Translations under genes and position numbers: made by a program
Sequence record: MF158041
Source: Shigella phage Sf15
Length of the DNA: 64,000 nucleotides
Reading direction: 5' to 3' (one strand)
Notes under the pieces: model-generated
What the model was told of the DNA's origin: nothing
What the model saw: only the letters and a program-made list of their open reading frames with translations
Database searches by the model: none
Part shown: piece after piece, positions 18,912 to 43,026 of the stretch
Layout: every line of letters starts with the position of its first letter
Numbering within the stretch: position 1 is the stretch's first letter

Positions 18912-18958
18912 AAACAAAAAAGGCTCCCGTAAAAAGGAGCCTTAGAATTATTTCTTTT
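18912..18958. terminator. bidirectional intrinsic terminator between convergent genes
   Basis: hairpin AGGCTCC-CGTAAAA-GGAGCCT at 18921-18942 flanked by A-run and T-rich run. Confidence 0.6.
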
Positions 18959-19322
18959 TAGTGCTTTGGGTATTTTGTTCTGTAATTGCTTGCAAAGCTG
19001 ATACAGATTGTGCTAAGTTGTTAACACTGTCAGAGAACTTATCAAGGGTCTTAGTCAACTTAGCGTTTTCTCCCTTAACATTCTCTAGCTGAACTTTCTG
19101 GTTCTCCATCCCTAATTGTAGGAGCTTCATATCAGATTGTAAGTCACGAATAGCTGAATAGTTACCTTTTGAGTAACCATCCAACTGCTGTAACTTATTT
19201 GTGATAGACACTTCCTGTTTACCATCAGAGACCTGCATTGTAGTGTACATACCAATTACACTGAAAATACCTACAACGATTGCACCAATATTATTCTTAA
19301 AAGCATCTTCAAGCCACTTCAT
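18948..19322 (-). CDS. membrane-anchored coiled-coil protein (spanin-like architecture)
   Basis: N-terminal TM helix IGAIVVGIFSVIGMY then long coiled coil. Confidence 0.4.
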   Translation of the reverse strand: MKWLEDAFKNNIGAIVVGIFSVIGMYTTMQVSDGKQEVSITNKLQQLDGYSKGNYSAIRDLQSDMKLLQLGMENQKVQLENVKGENAKLTKTLDKFSDSVNNLAQSVSALQAITEQNTQSTKKK

Positions 19323-19602: not shown

Positions 19603-21981
19603 TTATGCAGTTCTTACCCAAGCCATTAATTTAATGTAAGTGTTAAGAACACTGAATGCTGCACCAGAACCAGTTGCACCAGTGTTACCACTGAATGTGT
19701 GGTTGTGAGCACCAATGCCTACACCGTGACCGTGAGCACCTACCCAACTTGTTCTCCCTGTCCAAGTTCTTGATGCGTAGAAGTTAACTGGTGTACCATA
19801 AGTGAACTGTGAACCAGTATAACCTCTAGAGGCTTGTGAACCTGAGATAGCAAACGCCCCACTTGCTGTATAAAAGCTGTTTGCGTCACTTCTGAAGAAA
19901 CCAAAGTCACCAGAGATTTCCATGTTACCTCTGTCATGGTCGTGAGCACCTTGAGCGTCTGTGTACTTAGTACCATAATCAAAGGTAGTGGTTGTTCCAG
20001 AGAAGCTGTGAGTGTGCGCAGGGATATGACCAACACTTAATGCAACTGTATCAGCACCACCAAGCCCTTTCACATCGGAACCATTTGCAGAACCGATTCT
20101 AATAGTTCTGTTTGCACCCTCTGTCAAGTAAGTCCAAGTAGTGCCTGGGAAAGCTGTATTTGGGTTGACATTAGAAGCAAAGAACGTCACAATACCAACT
20201 GGATACACTTTCTTAAGGTCTGTAGAATCAGTTACCGCAGAGGCAATACGTTGGTCTACTTCAGCCTTGGTGTAAGCACCAAGTTCAGAGGGTGTAGGTT
20301 TGTCTTGGTCTGTGTAGATTTTAGCCCAAACCTCTTCAAAACCAAATCCATCCCTTGCTGTTCTATAATAGATTCCAGTATTCTTGTAGTTAAATTTAAA
20401 CTGTGCAGTCGGTGTAGATGTACCAACTCCAAGGTGCATTTGGTAAACTAAGTGAGTAGACCCGCCAGTTGAATTTGTAACACTGTACAAACCTGTTTTT
20501 GCATTCCAAGCAATACCTGTTGCATCACCGACTTCGGTTCCAGTTCCAGATACACCAGATAACATATATCTAGAGTTTGCAGCAGACTGTGTGTAGTATC
20601 TTGAGTCGAAGTTTGTCCAATCTGTAGGCTGAACCTGACCAGTTACTGATACGCTTCTGTTGAACATGAAAGTGTCAGCAATTTCTAACTGTACACCACC
20701 ACTTGAATAGTTGTACAGGAACAGAGAATTTGGCCTACTGCCTTCACCGTTACCAATATACCAACGTCTGTTGCCGTCTGCATTAGCGCCAACAATATAC
20801 AGTGATGAATTAGCTGTCCCACTTTGCAATGTGAAAGCAGCATCTGTAGTAACAATAGTTTGTGGGTTAGTAAAAACGTTTGCAGCATTAGTTCTTGCAA
20901 GAACGTTCGTTAAAGAGCTTGGAACATATCTTGTATCAAAGTTTGCAAAGTCACTTGGTTTTACCTGACCAGTTACGTTGATAGCTTTGTTAAATGAAAA
21001 CTCTGTAGCAATTTTCAAGTTAACATTTGTCATCTGGTTTGCTAAAACAATCTCAGACTGCGTACCATCTGGTTGACCCACATACCAAGCACCTGTCCCA
21101 GCACTGTTGTAACCACGCATAAATAATGCAGCATTCTCTGTAGCCGCTCTTAAGTTGAGTGCATTACTATCTGCAATAACGTAAGTCTTCCCGTTGAAGT
21201 TGTTAACCCCAACAAAGTTATTACTTGCATTAAGTCTTGCAAATCTCTGGTCAGCAGCAGTCTGTGTAAAGAATCTTGCATCAAGGTTATTCCAGTTATT
21301 AGGCTGAACCTGACCATTGATTTCAAAGTTCTTATCAACACTAACAGAGTTTGTACCAAGAGTCAACGTAGCACCTTTGCTGTTAACTAATGTAACATCA
21401 GTACCAGAAGTCAAGTTACCAACTGTGAATCTCAAAGCATTATTTGAGTCTCTTGCTTCAATATATGCTCCACCATCTGGTAAGATACTTTTAAGTGTTA
21501 AACCAACACCGTTGATATTAATGATTTGTCTTGCCAAGAAAGTATTTTCAGTTTCCTTCATAGCATATCTTGCATCATTTTCAGTGTTAGTTCTCATACC
21601 TAATTCATTAGGAGATGGTTTATTAAGTGTGTGATAAACTGTTGCAGACCTTGTGGCATCATTTACAGTTAATCTTAAAGCACTTGCATTAATTCTAAAG
21701 GTCTTGGCAGTGTCACCGAGAATAACTTCAGAAGAACCTGTTGGGTCTAATAAGTCTTTTCCACCGTATCTTAATTTAACGATGCCAAGATTTCCTGTCA
21801 TATCCCCACCAGTTAGTTGTAAGAATCTTTCTAGTTTGAAAGAGGCAAGGAAATTTGCATAGGTCATTTTACGGTCTTCATCACCTAGCATATCAGACCT
21901 TTTGATAATTCTTAGGTGAAGTAAATCTTCTGAGCGAACTGTATCAATACTGTTTAGCTCACTTAGCTTATATTCAGCCAT
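19603..21981 (-). CDS. tail fiber protein (long)
   Basis: 792 aa, repetitive beta-rich sequence, C-terminal His-rich HxH repeats (GAHGHGVGIGAHNHTF) ending WVRTA. Confidence 0.65.
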   Translation of the reverse strand: MAEYKLSELNSIDTVRSEDLLHLRIIKRSDMLGDEDRKMTYANFLASFKLERFLQLTGGDMTGNLGIVKLRYGGKDLLDPTGSSEVILGDTAKTFRINASALRLTVNDATRSATVYHTLNKPSPNELGMRTNTENDARYAMKETENTFLARQIININGVGLTLKSILPDGGAYIEARDSNNALRFTVGNLTSGTDVTLVNSKGATLTLGTNSVSVDKNFEINGQVQPNNWNNLDARFFTQTAADQRFARLNASNNFVGVNNFNGKTYVIADSNALNLRAATENAALFMRGYNSAGTGAWYVGQPDGTQSEIVLANQMTNVNLKIATEFSFNKAINVTGQVKPSDFANFDTRYVPSSLTNVLARTNAANVFTNPQTIVTTDAAFTLQSGTANSSLYIVGANADGNRRWYIGNGEGSRPNSLFLYNYSSGGVQLEIADTFMFNRSVSVTGQVQPTDWTNFDSRYYTQSAANSRYMLSGVSGTGTEVGDATGIAWNAKTGLYSVTNSTGGSTHLVYQMHLGVGTSTPTAQFKFNYKNTGIYYRTARDGFGFEEVWAKIYTDQDKPTPSELGAYTKAEVDQRIASAVTDSTDLKKVYPVGIVTFFASNVNPNTAFPGTTWTYLTEGANRTIRIGSANGSDVKGLGGADTVALSVGHIPAHTHSFSGTTTTFDYGTKYTDAQGAHDHDRGNMEISGDFGFFRSDANSFYTASGAFAISGSQASRGYTGSQFTYGTPVNFYASRTWTGRTSWVGAHGHGVGIGAHNHTFSGNTGATGSGAAFSVLNTYIKLMAWVRTA

Positions 21982-22026
21982 TTATAAATCCTCTTTCTAG
22001 GGGCTGTGTAGCCCCTTATAAAATAA

Positions 22027-23202
22027 TTACGCAGTTCTCTTCCAAACATATACAACATAAGAAGGTTGCTCAATATTAAATGCTTGTCCAGCACCAAATG
22101 CACCAGTTGTACCTGAGTGAGTGTGCTCAGAAGATTGAACTGTCACAGTACCTGAGTGTCCATGTGAACCAATTGCAACGCTGTGTCCATGTGCTCCGAT
22201 ATACACACTGTGAGAGTGGTTACCACCAACTGAAGAGTTAACATTGAAGGTATGTGTGTGAACCCCATCAAAGTCTGTATATGACGCATTCCCAACACCT
22301 GCATCAGCCGTTGCCGTAATAGCATTCACACCACCCCTGTCAGAACCCCTCAATGGAATCCTGTGGCTGTGACTACCAGCACTGCTTACAGAACCATTAA
22401 CGTTATGAGCGTGGCTTCCAGAGTCGTTTGTGGCCTTAGAACCGTAATCAAAACTTGATGTGCTCTTAGTCCCATAGTCAAAGCTAGAAATTACTACTGT
22501 TGCATTATGGGAGTGTCCACCACCAGTTAACAATACAGAGTGTGTGTGACTTGGAATGTTATTTTGTGTAAGTGTTACAGTAGCAGAACCAAATACTGAT
22601 TCTACAGGTCTTGTATCTGTGTCATAACCGACAAGAGACCTTCCTTTAGAAACTAACTCCCAAGTACCACCACAAAGTAAATATGTAGATGGGTTTGCAG
22701 GGTTAACTGACAAATGAATAGTACCAATCGGATAGCTATTCTGGATAGCCCTATATAAAGCATTCACAGCTTTTGCAGTAGCATACTTATCAGCATCTTC
22801 AGAGTAAGAGTTTGAATATGTCCAGTTTTGAATATTAGACAAACCTACTTGAATCTTGTTAGTGTTGTGAGGGTTATTCTTGTCATTAATGTGATTCTGA
22901 ATAAGAGCATTAACTTCATCACTTGATAGAATATTAAGGTTCTGCCTAGCCTCTTCAACACTAACCACGTCTGACAAGTTATTAGCAGCCACTAATTGGA
23001 GTGCGTTAACAACATTACCAAGTTCTACGTGAACCTTTGTAACGCCGTGTGGGTTATTTCTTAAAGATGCGTGTGGAGCAAGTAATTGCTCAAGTGTGCA
23101 TCGTTTATCCTCAATACCTTGCTTAAGGTGAAAGATATCACTTAAATCAATAGGCAACGAGGCTTGAGGCAATGCACTAATTTGAATTTCACCTACTGGC
23201 AT
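22027..23202 (-). CDS. tail fiber protein (short paralog)
   Basis: 391 aa; C-terminal HSHSVYIGAHGHSVAIGSHGHSG and terminal WKRTA parallel the neighbouring fiber. Confidence 0.6.
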   Translation of the reverse strand: MPVGEIQISALPQASLPIDLSDIFHLKQGIEDKRCTLEQLLAPHASLRNNPHGVTKVHVELGNVVNALQLVAANNLSDVVSVEEARQNLNILSSDEVNALIQNHINDKNNPHNTNKIQVGLSNIQNWTYSNSYSEDADKYATAKAVNALYRAIQNSYPIGTIHLSVNPANPSTYLLCGGTWELVSKGRSLVGYDTDTRPVESVFGSATVTLTQNNIPSHTHSVLLTGGGHSHNATVVISSFDYGTKSTSSFDYGSKATNDSGSHAHNVNGSVSSAGSHSHRIPLRGSDRGGVNAITATADAGVGNASYTDFDGVHTHTFNVNSSVGGNHSHSVYIGAHGHSVAIGSHGHSGTVTVQSSEHTHSGTTGAFGAGQAFNIEQPSYVVYVWKRTA

Positions 23203-23204
23203 TA

Positions 23205-23504
23205 TTAGCTCCCTTTATATTCGTATGTGTAAAGGTTAGTCGTGCTAGTGGGTGCAGTTCCTGTTACTGTGTCAATTAATTCCCAACCATTGGAAACTAA
23301 ATCAGGTTGCTCCGTAGCAAATGAACGAACCTCTCCAACCGTACCATTTACTTTGTTAAGCAAATAGTTGATAATATAGTTAAACCACTGACGACCCATA
23401 GGCTCACCCCTTAATAGGCCAGTGGCTTGAATTTCTGGAGGTGGTAAAACTTTAAGCTGGTTACCATCAGCATCAACTGTATCTGTAGACCATGAAAGAG
23501 ACAT
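23205..23504 (-). CDS. hypothetical tail-associated protein
   Basis: 99 aa ORF between baseplate and fiber genes. Confidence 0.4.
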
Positions 23505-24400
23505 TATGAACTTCCTTCTTGTTGAGATTTATCTTTTCTACCTTTGACGATTTGGGCGACTTCTGCCATAATCCCATAATCACCACCTGCTACTGTTTCT
23601 TTACCAGCAATGAAATAGTCGTTGCTATTGTTTGTTTTGCTGACTTTTAAATAATCTTTACTGGTACTTCCACCAGTTTTATCCACTCTTACATAACCAT
23701 CTCTTACACCTGCATCTGCAAAACTACCTAATTTATTTGCTTCTAGAGAGCCACCTGTGTTGTTCGTAATAAGACCCTTGTTAGTGTTTGTTACAAACCA
23801 GTTGTTGTTCTCATCAGTAATTGCCAGAGATGAATCAGCAACCTCTACAGGAGTCCAAGCAGTACCATTTAAGGTAACATCTCTAAGGATAACTGCTGAA
23901 CCAATAGTTGTTGCAGCAATCTTAGAAAGTGTGTATGCTGTATCTAACACGTTATTACGAGTGTTTACACGGATAACAATTCCACCAGTCATTGGCGTAA
24001 TGTGCTCAAAAATCTGACTGAATGATGCGTTGTAAAGGGTCATAACAGCTTTTTGTAAGAAGCTTGGTGTGGTGTCAGAACGTCTTAAGAAAATTTGAAT
24101 GTAGAGGATAGCTCTGTAAGTGTCATCATCAGCACCAATAGGTCTAGGGACTTTAATCAAAGCCCCGATGTTATCAAGTTGTGTGCCAACACCTACACGA
24201 ATATTTCTTTCAGTATATAACTGATTACTGATATCCTCTAATAATTGTAACTCATCTGTGATAGATTTCAATAGACTTGTGTAAATAAACTTATCTTTGA
24301 ATTGAGTTACAGTTCTTTCGTCCAATGTTTTCTCATAAAAGTTTTCAATCTTTTTAAACATTGTTACTCCTTGGTAATTGTATACTGTGAGCTTTCCCAA
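23504..24400 (-). CDS. baseplate/tail protein (P2 gpI-like position)
   Basis: gene order after J-like gene. Confidence 0.4.

Positions 24401-26248: not shown

Positions 26249-26249
<1 letters not shown>
25833..26249 (-). CDS. baseplate wedge protein (gpW-like)
   Basis: 138 aa, synteny. Confidence 0.4.
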
Positions 26250-29010
<2,761 letters not shown>

Positions 29011-42944: not shown

Positions 42945-43020
42945 TGGAGTATCGGAAGGGACTCGAACCCTCATAAACCTGTTTTGCAGACAGGCACATA
43001 ACCATTTCTGACACCGACAC
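42945..43020 (-). tRNA. tRNA-Cys (GCA)
   Basis: manual fold: 7-bp acceptor, T-arm, anticodon loop shows codon TGC on plus strand; CCA encoded. Confidence 0.7.
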
Positions 43021-43026
43021 ATAATT

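Follow-up and report, generated by a model that had tools for sequence, protein, structure and literature searches.

Two adjacent tail-fibre genes of Shigella phage Sf15 encode homologous, T4 gp37-like tips with putative metal sites

Shigella phage Sf15 was examined here through a stretch of 64,000 nucleotides from sequence record MF158041, which is referred to as the window. On the minus strand of the window lie two adjacent genes (positions 19,603 to 23,202) that encode proteins of 391 and 792 amino acids (aa), called here the short and the long fibre. These proteins are very probably the two lateral tail fibres of a Mooglevirus, each of them a homotrimer that carries a tip of the T4 gp37 type, with putative metal sites and an apex that contacts the receptor. 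A two-fibre architecture with gp37-like tips containing histidine-x-histidine (HxH) motifs is already known for the orthologs of phages Sf14 and Bas63 (JohannRWettstein), both published in 2025. An earlier sequence-only reading of this DNA had described two tail-fibre paralogs with histidine-rich C-termini and a shared terminal motif, and had proposed that a duplicated receptor-binding tip points to two receptor specificities or to a host-range switching module. Both open reading frames that it named are present. Its observation is real, and its interpretation as tail fibres with metal-site-like tips is correct, while duplication and switching are unsupported.

On sequence comparison, the window is DNA of a Mooglevirus (Ounavirinae), that is, of a Felix O1-like myovirus of Shigella and Escherichia coli. 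The 3.6-kb fibre region is 99.1% identical to that of Shigella phage KPS64, and 95–98% identical to those of Sf13, Sf14, Sf16–Sf19, and Escherichia phage 3HA14 (95% for Sf14). These phages all belong to the genus or are closely related to it, and their annotations label both genes as tail fibres, a label that is also used in dozens of GenBank records. Identity to Sf14 gp52 (FDI99_gp105) and to the Sf16 protein is 100% for the short fibre; for the long fibre, identity to Sf14 gp53 (FDI99_gp104) is 95.8%. Gene order is kept and the flanking genes are alike on both sides, so that identity and context together establish the two pairs as orthologous. The short fibre belongs to the tail-fibre family phrog_2097 (E 5e-131), and the long fibre matches a second tail-fibre family, phrog_4277, over its full length (1338 bits). 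In the electron cryo-microscopy (cryo-EM) study of Sf14 by Subramanian et al. (2025), gp52 (391 aa) and gp53 (792 aa) were both detected in the virion, as fibres of ~430 and ~630 Å that are retracted along the tail (PMC11821841). Published cryo-EM and mass spectrometry of virions put the two fibres on one and the same particle. The assignment of both proteins to tail fibres, originally made from the letters alone, is thus borne out by family membership and by identity to proteins located in the virion.

The C-terminal regions of both proteins are unusually rich in HxH motifs. Nine are found in the short fibre (at residues 219, 230, 264, 278, 315, 329, 338, 347, and 360) and four in the long fibre (656, 680, 750, and 759). 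Every one of them falls within the C-terminal 140–175 residues, and nearly all histidines of these domains belong to such a motif. When the C-terminal domains were shuffled, the observed count was attained in 3 of 20,000 trials for the long fibre and in 0 of 20,000 for the short fibre. Conservation was assessed in 59 short-fibre and 121 long-fibre sequences, the query included. In this set the motif histidines are 92–100% conserved, except for the short-fibre motif at 264/266 (68–75%). Long-fibre homologs carry four motifs in 105 of 120 cases and six in 13 of 120, and the number of presumptive metal sites among relatives is four or six in long fibres and six to ten in short ones. In both proteins, the motifs flank a central segment free of HxH histidines, with four before and five after it in the short fibre, and two on either side in the long fibre. 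The proteins also end alike, in MAWVRTA (long) and YVWKRTA (short), and an ending of the W-x-R-T-A type is conserved among homologs (Table 1). The histidine enrichment and the shared terminal residues noted in the sequence-only reading are therefore confirmed, and the histidine clusters withstand its test of conservation in homologs.

Pairwise alignment of the two C-termini, which that reading had proposed as a check, reveals similarity beyond chance. Residues 589–792 of the long fibre and 153–391 of the short fibre are 28% identical (composition-adjusted BLASTP, E 8e-17), and profile–profile alignment returns a probability of 99.8% (E 1.7e-29). Both proteins are also similar to the tip of T4 gp37 (2XGF), the short fibre at E 4e-25 (9e-28 with a profile) and the long fibre at E 6e-5 (4e-11 with a profile). 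Similarity is greatest in the short needle, which is 50% identical to T4 gp37 over 120 aa (residues 242–361; BLASTP E 1e-27). These alignments support the homology of the HxH regions of both fibres to the iron-binding needle of T4 gp37, and they are consistent with the metal-type fibre tip that had been suggested from the histidine repeats. In the gp37 tip structure, reportedly described by Bartual et al. in 2010, six histidines from three chains are said to coordinate Fe2+ octahedrally.

The likeness to gp37 includes the FDYGTK and HxH needle sequence, a V-x-IGAHxH repeat of nine residues, and a central head between HxH strands. There are also differences. T4 gp37 has seven HxH motifs and forms the distal quarter of a four-protein fibre, whereas the fibres here are single proteins. 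Its collar is not detectably similar to the collars here (−3.5 bits, profile alignment), which are of the T4 gp10 C-terminal type. Indeed, the collars of both fibres match the T4 gp10 C-terminal domain (2FKK; PF21939) and the related gp12 collar. In gp10, however, this domain is compact and part of the baseplate, while here it lies in a fibre and has an HxH needle and head inserted into it (~145 aa in the short fibre, ~105 aa in the long fibre).

The architecture of the short fibre is apparent from its only Pfam family, Gp10_C (PF21939; E 5e-17, 63.5 bits, above the gathering cutoff of 27 bits). The match runs from residue 155 to residue 390 and covers profile positions 4–139, the last of these being the final position of 139. 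Because a single match spans this whole range, the needle of ~145 residues is an insertion that splits the collar, which would then be closed by the C-terminus. Between the fourth and fifth HxH motifs lies the apex (residues 281–314), the most variable stretch of the protein, with a column entropy of ~2.9 against a protein mean of 1.1, and with homologs that are 15–33% identical to the query. The short-fibre family is widespread, occurring at full length in 292 records; of the 575 records with a match, 86 are from Salmonella phages and 29 from Erwinia phages. The needle module is also found in T-even gp37 and in lambdoid Stf-like fibres.

The long fibre is more elaborate. From the N- to the C-terminus, it consists of a conserved N-terminal region, three rod repeats, a Mu S-like domain, a collar, a needle with its apex, and a collar-closing strand. 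The rod repeats are visible at the DNA level (repeat family D1, 330/345-nt spacing) and are modelled with a predicted local distance difference test (pLDDT) score of 70–86. The region they occupy has a weak profile match to T7 gp17 (4A0T). The Mu tail fibre S structure (8JU3) aligns with residues 477–582 at E 2e-22 (2.4e-26 with a profile), and the scores of PF20744, in three stretches, and of PF12604 exceed their gathering cutoffs.

Published work on related phages suggests how such tips may be built. Both Ounavirinae fibres described for Bas63 have a gp37-like collar, an HxH needle, and a head at which the chain doubles back, making the needle six-stranded (PMC12609058). By extension, each Sf15 fibre protein would form a homotrimer attached to the baseplate wedge by its N-terminus, a role that for the short fibre is taken from the Bas63 cryo-EM work (PMC12609058). 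The tip would be laid out in four steps: a collar, an ascending HxH beta-strand, a small apex (the head), and a descending HxH strand leading back to the collar. At each HxH motif, three chains would supply six histidines around one axial metal ion (Fe2+ in T4 gp37), which would give up to nine predicted metal sites in the short fibre and four in the long fibre. Such sites would stiffen a thin needle that is poor in hydrophobic core. The probable receptor-contact surface would be the apex, which separates the central HxH motifs (281–314 in the short fibre, 683–749 in the long). The long fibre would depart from this plan through its three inserted rod repeats and its Mu S-like domain. Since the chain doubles back, the W-x-R-T-A ending would belong to the collar rather than to the tip, and because it closes the collar domain, it would be common to both fibres and conserved for structural reasons. 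As both fibres are on the same virion, two different tips would be presented at once.

A number of observations weigh against this arrangement. Metal binding by both fibres is extrapolated from homology to T4 gp37, and the receptor for either fibre remains putative. The AlphaFold2 (AF2) monomer of the short fibre has a mean pLDDT of 67.5; its collar is modelled confidently, but its apex scores below 50. In the long-fibre monomer, pLDDT is below 50 throughout the tip, and the model therefore says nothing about it. A Foldseek search of the short-fibre monomer against the PDB gave no significant match (best E 0.1), and the top entries, all non-significant, were gp10 of KP1 and T4 and the C24 protein 6OV6, which accord with the sequence comparisons without being evidence on their own. 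The Gp10_C score of the long fibre (25.4 bits) is below the 27-bit cutoff, so that it is not a PF21939 member by that criterion alone, although many of its homologs bear a precomputed PF21939 match. In the published cryo-EM work, fibre density sufficed only for docking AlphaFold models. Lastly, the Sf14 authors place the gp37/C24-like part of gp52 in the middle of the fibre and not at its tip (PMC11821841). Weak monomer models and Foldseek results are expected for an intertwined trimer, but they leave the fold proposed here as a prediction from sequence. The single-chain model of the short fibre contains, besides its confident collar, long paired strands at residues 222–241 and 347–365.

Comparison with the two published systems shows both close agreement and local departures. 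Sf14 has the same genes, with the same lengths, order, and neighbours, and its authors report that gp52 contains a domain like the C-terminal one of T4 gp10 and that the distal tip of gp53 resembles gp37; the HxH motifs of the fibres are neither counted nor discussed in that paper (PMC11821841). The long fibre of Sf15 diverges from gp53 mainly at residues 511–570 and in the apex at 691–750 (73–87% identity). Bas63 has seven HxH motifs in its short tail fibre (STF) and six in its long tail fibre (LTF) (PMC12609058), where Sf15 has nine and four, and the long fibre of Sf15 differs further by its four-HxH tip and its 67-aa aromatic-rich apex. A third HxH protein is encoded elsewhere in the tail module. 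This 213-aa protein (26249–26890, minus strand) matches PF18352 and has a single HxH motif (EHTHH, 194–196). Its counterpart is the central needle of Sf14, gp47, in which His194 and His196 have been proposed to bind iron (PMC11821841).

The apices are also where the fibres differ most between phages of different hosts. Among close relatives that infect Shigella, the short fibre is 99.7–100% identical, and the long fibre shows local divergence in the third rod repeat, in residues 511–570, and in the apex (691–750). The long-fibre apex is 67–73% identical to those of close relatives, compared with 97–100% over most of the remaining protein. In phage ESh19, divergence is located around residues 361–450, in the third rod repeat (window positions 20632–20901), where identity falls to 27–67% in fibres that are otherwise 97–100% identical. 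Judged from these alignments, a short segment within the shaft has been replaced by recombination, so that such replacement is not restricted to the tip. In Citrobacter phage Michonne, both apexes are 20–27% identical to those of Sf15 (27% for the short apex), while the N-termini are at least 90% identical. Hypervariability like that of the short-fibre apex was considered for the long-fibre apex and rejected, as it is the rod repeats that vary most among the top 120 homologs. Variability of the long-fibre apex instead takes the form of two discrete tip types, together with the local divergence among close relatives.

One of these types, designated type A, is the 67-aa aromatic-rich apex of Sf15. 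It occupies the site at which relatives with six HxH motifs hold two extra motifs and have 36–39 aa between the central HxH motifs. The aromatic sequences GDFGFF and NFYASRTW stand in the four-HxH tip at the positions of the third and fourth motifs (GxHxH, HTHTF) of the six-HxH relatives. Type A apices occur in 59 phage records, and the genomes among those listed are all of Ounavirinae size (78–93 kb). Hosts among the records listed are Escherichia (36), Shigella (19), Citrobacter (2), and Salmonella (1). It is conceivable, if somewhat doubtful, that the four-HxH long tip is a distinct and undescribed variant of the gp37 type, in which aromatic residues have taken the place of metal sites in an enlarged apex, which is confined to Ounavirinae-sized genomes of phages nearly all from Escherichia or Shigella, and which determines their specificity for lipopolysaccharide (LPS).

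Contact between the apex and the receptor is suggested by correlational evidence, namely the location of variability. The head domain of T4 gp37, with which the short-fibre apex aligns, contacts the receptor in T4. It is plausible that the two different tips confer two receptor specificities, as the sequence-only reading had supposed. Structures of the LPS core or of the O-antigen are the probable receptors. In this phage group the receptor is likely to be of the LPS class (PMC8594841, PMC12671091), and a Shigella mutant resistant to a Mooglevirus carries a lesion in the LPS core gene waaH and no longer allows the phage to adsorb (PMC12671091).

How the two fibres came to be neighbours has more than one potential explanation. 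It is unlikely that a single receptor-binding tip was recently duplicated in tandem within this lineage and that the paralogs then diverged. Although the genes are adjacent, have homologous collars and needles, and share the terminal WxRTA, the tips are only 28% identical, and the short needle resembles T4 gp37 more closely than it does the fibre encoded beside it. Similarity at the DNA level is likewise limited to 42 nt at 74% identity. The N-termini share a weak motif (hhalign E 1e-3, 20% probability; Smith–Waterman p ~0.02, 101 of 5000 shuffles), which is only suggestive of homology. Furthermore, the two exchangeable types of long tip cross genus lines: the four-HxH type is found in Sf15 and in Escherichia phage Ro111lw, and the six-HxH type in Mooglevirus Michonne and pEC-M719 (and in Bas63, according to PMC12609058). 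Given these identities, the tip types that cross genera, and the presence of the needle module in T-even and lambdoid fibres, the duplication does not appear to be recent. Ancient paralogy combined with modular (horizontal) exchange would fit the sequences better.

The proposed host-range switching module fares worse. Under such a scheme, resembling the G segment of Mu or the C segment of P1, alternative tips would be expressed one at a time by means of inversion or another switch. The adjacency of the genes, their homologous C-termini, and the Mu S-homologous domain (8JU3) of the long fibre might bring this system to mind, but each gene is complete, with its own start codon, ribosome-binding site, and N-terminal region, and both are read in the same direction, rather than as opposed alternative exons. 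The inverted repeats in and around the genes are 14–18 nt long with mismatches, which is chance level, and they flank no cassette. A repeat search of the locus found only chance-size matches, other than the internal rod repeats and the 42-nt stretch (74%) at the C-terminal coding ends. Pfam scans of 20 proteins of the window, all neighbours included, gave no match to a recombinase such as a Gin/Cin-type invertase. Both proteins are, moreover, present simultaneously on the virions of Sf14 and Bas63 (PMC11821841, PMC12609058). A switch is consequently highly improbable. The resemblance to phage Mu extends to the long-fibre domain (S/S') and, according to the literature, to a Mu-like baseplate, but Sf15 is without the inversion system, has both fibres in use at once, and belongs with phages in which a U/U' homolog is missing (PMC11821841). 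It is equally hard to credit that one or both proteins are baseplate parts of the T4 gp10-like wedge or tail-pin kind: Gp10_C is the sole Pfam family matched by the 391-aa protein, and phages Moogle and mistaenkt annotate its homolog as ‘baseplate wedge subunit and tail pin’, but the gp10 match is confined to the collar, the remainder matches the gp37 needle, PHROGs gives tail-fibre families, and cryo-EM assigns the 430 Å fibre to this protein (PMC11821841, PMC12609058).

With both proteins taken as lateral tail fibres, their folding deserves consideration. T4 gp37 requires gp38 and gp57A to fold. A Pfam scan of three small flanking open reading frames for chaperone-like domains gave nothing informative, and no search aimed at gp38 or gp57A was made. 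The Mu-type fibre chaperones (U/U') are reported to be missing from Sf14 (PMC11821841). A further possibility is that both needles, as parts of single-protein fibres, fold without gp38, gp57A, or a chaperone of the Mu U type.

Table 1. Features of the fibre locus, with positions in the window.
Feature	Position	Strand	Basis or remarks
Bidirectional terminator	18920-18943		Symmetric GC-rich hairpin, T-runs on both strands; where plus-strand thymidylate synthase meets minus-strand fibre/holin operon
Long tail fibre gene, 792 aa	19603..21981	-	Open reading frame; = Sf14 gp53; Bas63 gp27-type ‘LTF’
Long fibre collar-closing segment, residues 762-792, end WVRTA	19606..19698	-	Alignment with short fibre; WVRTA in 115/120 long-fibre homologs
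Long fibre descending needle, residues 750-761	19699..19734	-	2 HxH (GAHGHGVGIGAHNH)
Long fibre 67-aa aromatic-rich apex, ‘type A’, residues 683-749	19735..19935	-	Alignment with Michonne, pEC-M719, and Ro111lw
Long fibre ascending needle, residues 656-682	19936..20016	-	2 HxH (PAHTHS, GAHDHD) and FDYGTK
Long fibre collar, N-terminal half, residues 589-655	20017..20217	-	Aligns to short-fibre collar
Mu S / gp37_C-type domain, residues 478-587	20221..20550	-	Pfam PF12604, E 4.6e-18, 65.6 bits
Three rod repeats, ~110 aa each, residues ~150-474	20560..21534	-	Pfam gp37_trimer PF20744 x3, E 1e-44, 150.9 bits
GC-rich hairpin AGGGGCT-ACAC-AGCCCCT, 7-bp stem	21999..22016	-	In 45-nt spacer between short and long fibre genes
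Short tail fibre gene, 391 aa	22027..23202	-	Open reading frame; = Sf14 gp52; Bas63 gp26-type ‘STF’
Short fibre collar-closing segment, residues 363-391, end WKRTA	22030..22116	-	Gp10_C to residue 390; pLDDT 85-87; conserved ending
Short fibre descending needle strand, residues 315-362	22117..22260	-	5 HxH, including IGAHGHSVAIGSHGH at 9-residue spacing
Short fibre hypervariable apex, residues 281-314	22261..22362	-	Equivalent of T4 gp37 head domain; aligns with head segment
Short fibre ascending needle strand, residues 219-280	22363..22548	-	4 HxH, FDYG[TS]K duplication; aligned to T4 gp37 2XGF
Short fibre collar, N-terminal half (Gp10_C type), residues 153-218	22549..22746	-	Gp10_C from residue 155; T4 gp10 2FKK, E 5e-7; pLDDT 82-91
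Short fibre N-terminal region, residues 1-45, presumed baseplate-binding	23068..23202	-	84-91% conserved in homologs
99-aa protein directly upstream of fibre genes	23205..23504	-	phrog_4141, E 1e-60, function unannotated

The spacer between the two fibre genes contains a hairpin (Table 1) with a predicted stability of about −13 kcal/mol with its flanks, and this is followed by AAGAGGA, the ribosome-binding site of the long-fibre gene. Sf14, ESh19, Silverhawkium, and Michonne have an identical stem-loop, although the flanking bases of the spacer vary. As it lacks a T-run, it is not a classical terminator, and it could be an element for mRNA stability, processing, or attenuation.

The fibre genes lie in a recognisable tail module. 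Transcriptionally upstream of them are genes for a Baseplate_J-like wedge protein (489 aa), a second wedge protein, and the 99-aa protein. The order of 489-aa protein, 285-aa protein, small protein, short fibre, and long fibre matches Bas63 gp23–gp27, and the sizes of the wedge proteins agree (PMC12609058). In Bas63, gp25 is the ‘LTF platform’ that holds the long fibre (PMC12609058). The 99-aa protein, for which a Pfam scan gave no match, may be the positional counterpart of gp25. The second wedge gene was mechanically called as an open reading frame of 298 aa with a TTG start (23504–24400, minus strand), which is probably 13 codons too long; a start at the internal ATG of residue 14 (MFKKIENF...), giving 285 aa, agrees with the PHROG profile and with the orthologs as annotated in Sf14 and Bas63.

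Downstream of the fibres follow a 64-aa protein, a 124-aa putative holin, and the bidirectional terminator, with thymidylate synthase and dihydrofolate reductase (DHFR) converging from the opposite strand. The gene of the 124-aa protein (18948–19322, minus strand) is the second one after that of the long fibre. The protein contains a hydrophobic segment near its N-terminus and resembles a coiled coil in its C-terminal part. Relatives carry it under the label ‘putative holin’, and the only Pfam matches, to coiled coils, are below threshold. The label is odd, because the Sf14 table lists the ortholog, gp55, as detected in virions (PMC11821841). One possibility is that it is a fibre or assembly factor.

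Elsewhere in the window, 26 tRNA genes are clustered at 42945–47611 (minus strand), covering most amino acids and including tRNA-His(GTG). Felix O1-like phages typically have large tRNA clusters. Adjoining the cluster is a gene for a 471-aa protein (47777–49192, minus strand) with the domains DUF7788 (E 6e-44) and DUF2828 (E 7e-27).

Three features of Sf15 go beyond the literature on its relatives: the numbers of HxH motifs, which differ in both fibres from those of Bas63, the four-HxH long tip with its aromatic residues and enlarged apex, and the conserved 7-bp hairpin. More generally, the tips behave as exchangeable modules that are common to T-even and lambdoid fibres. The varying number of presumptive metal sites among relatives offers a natural series for studying the contribution of metal to needle stability. 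The likely specificity segments (residues 281–314 of the short fibre and 683–749 of the long fibre) may likewise be useful for host-range engineering of therapeutic phages against Shigella and E. coli.

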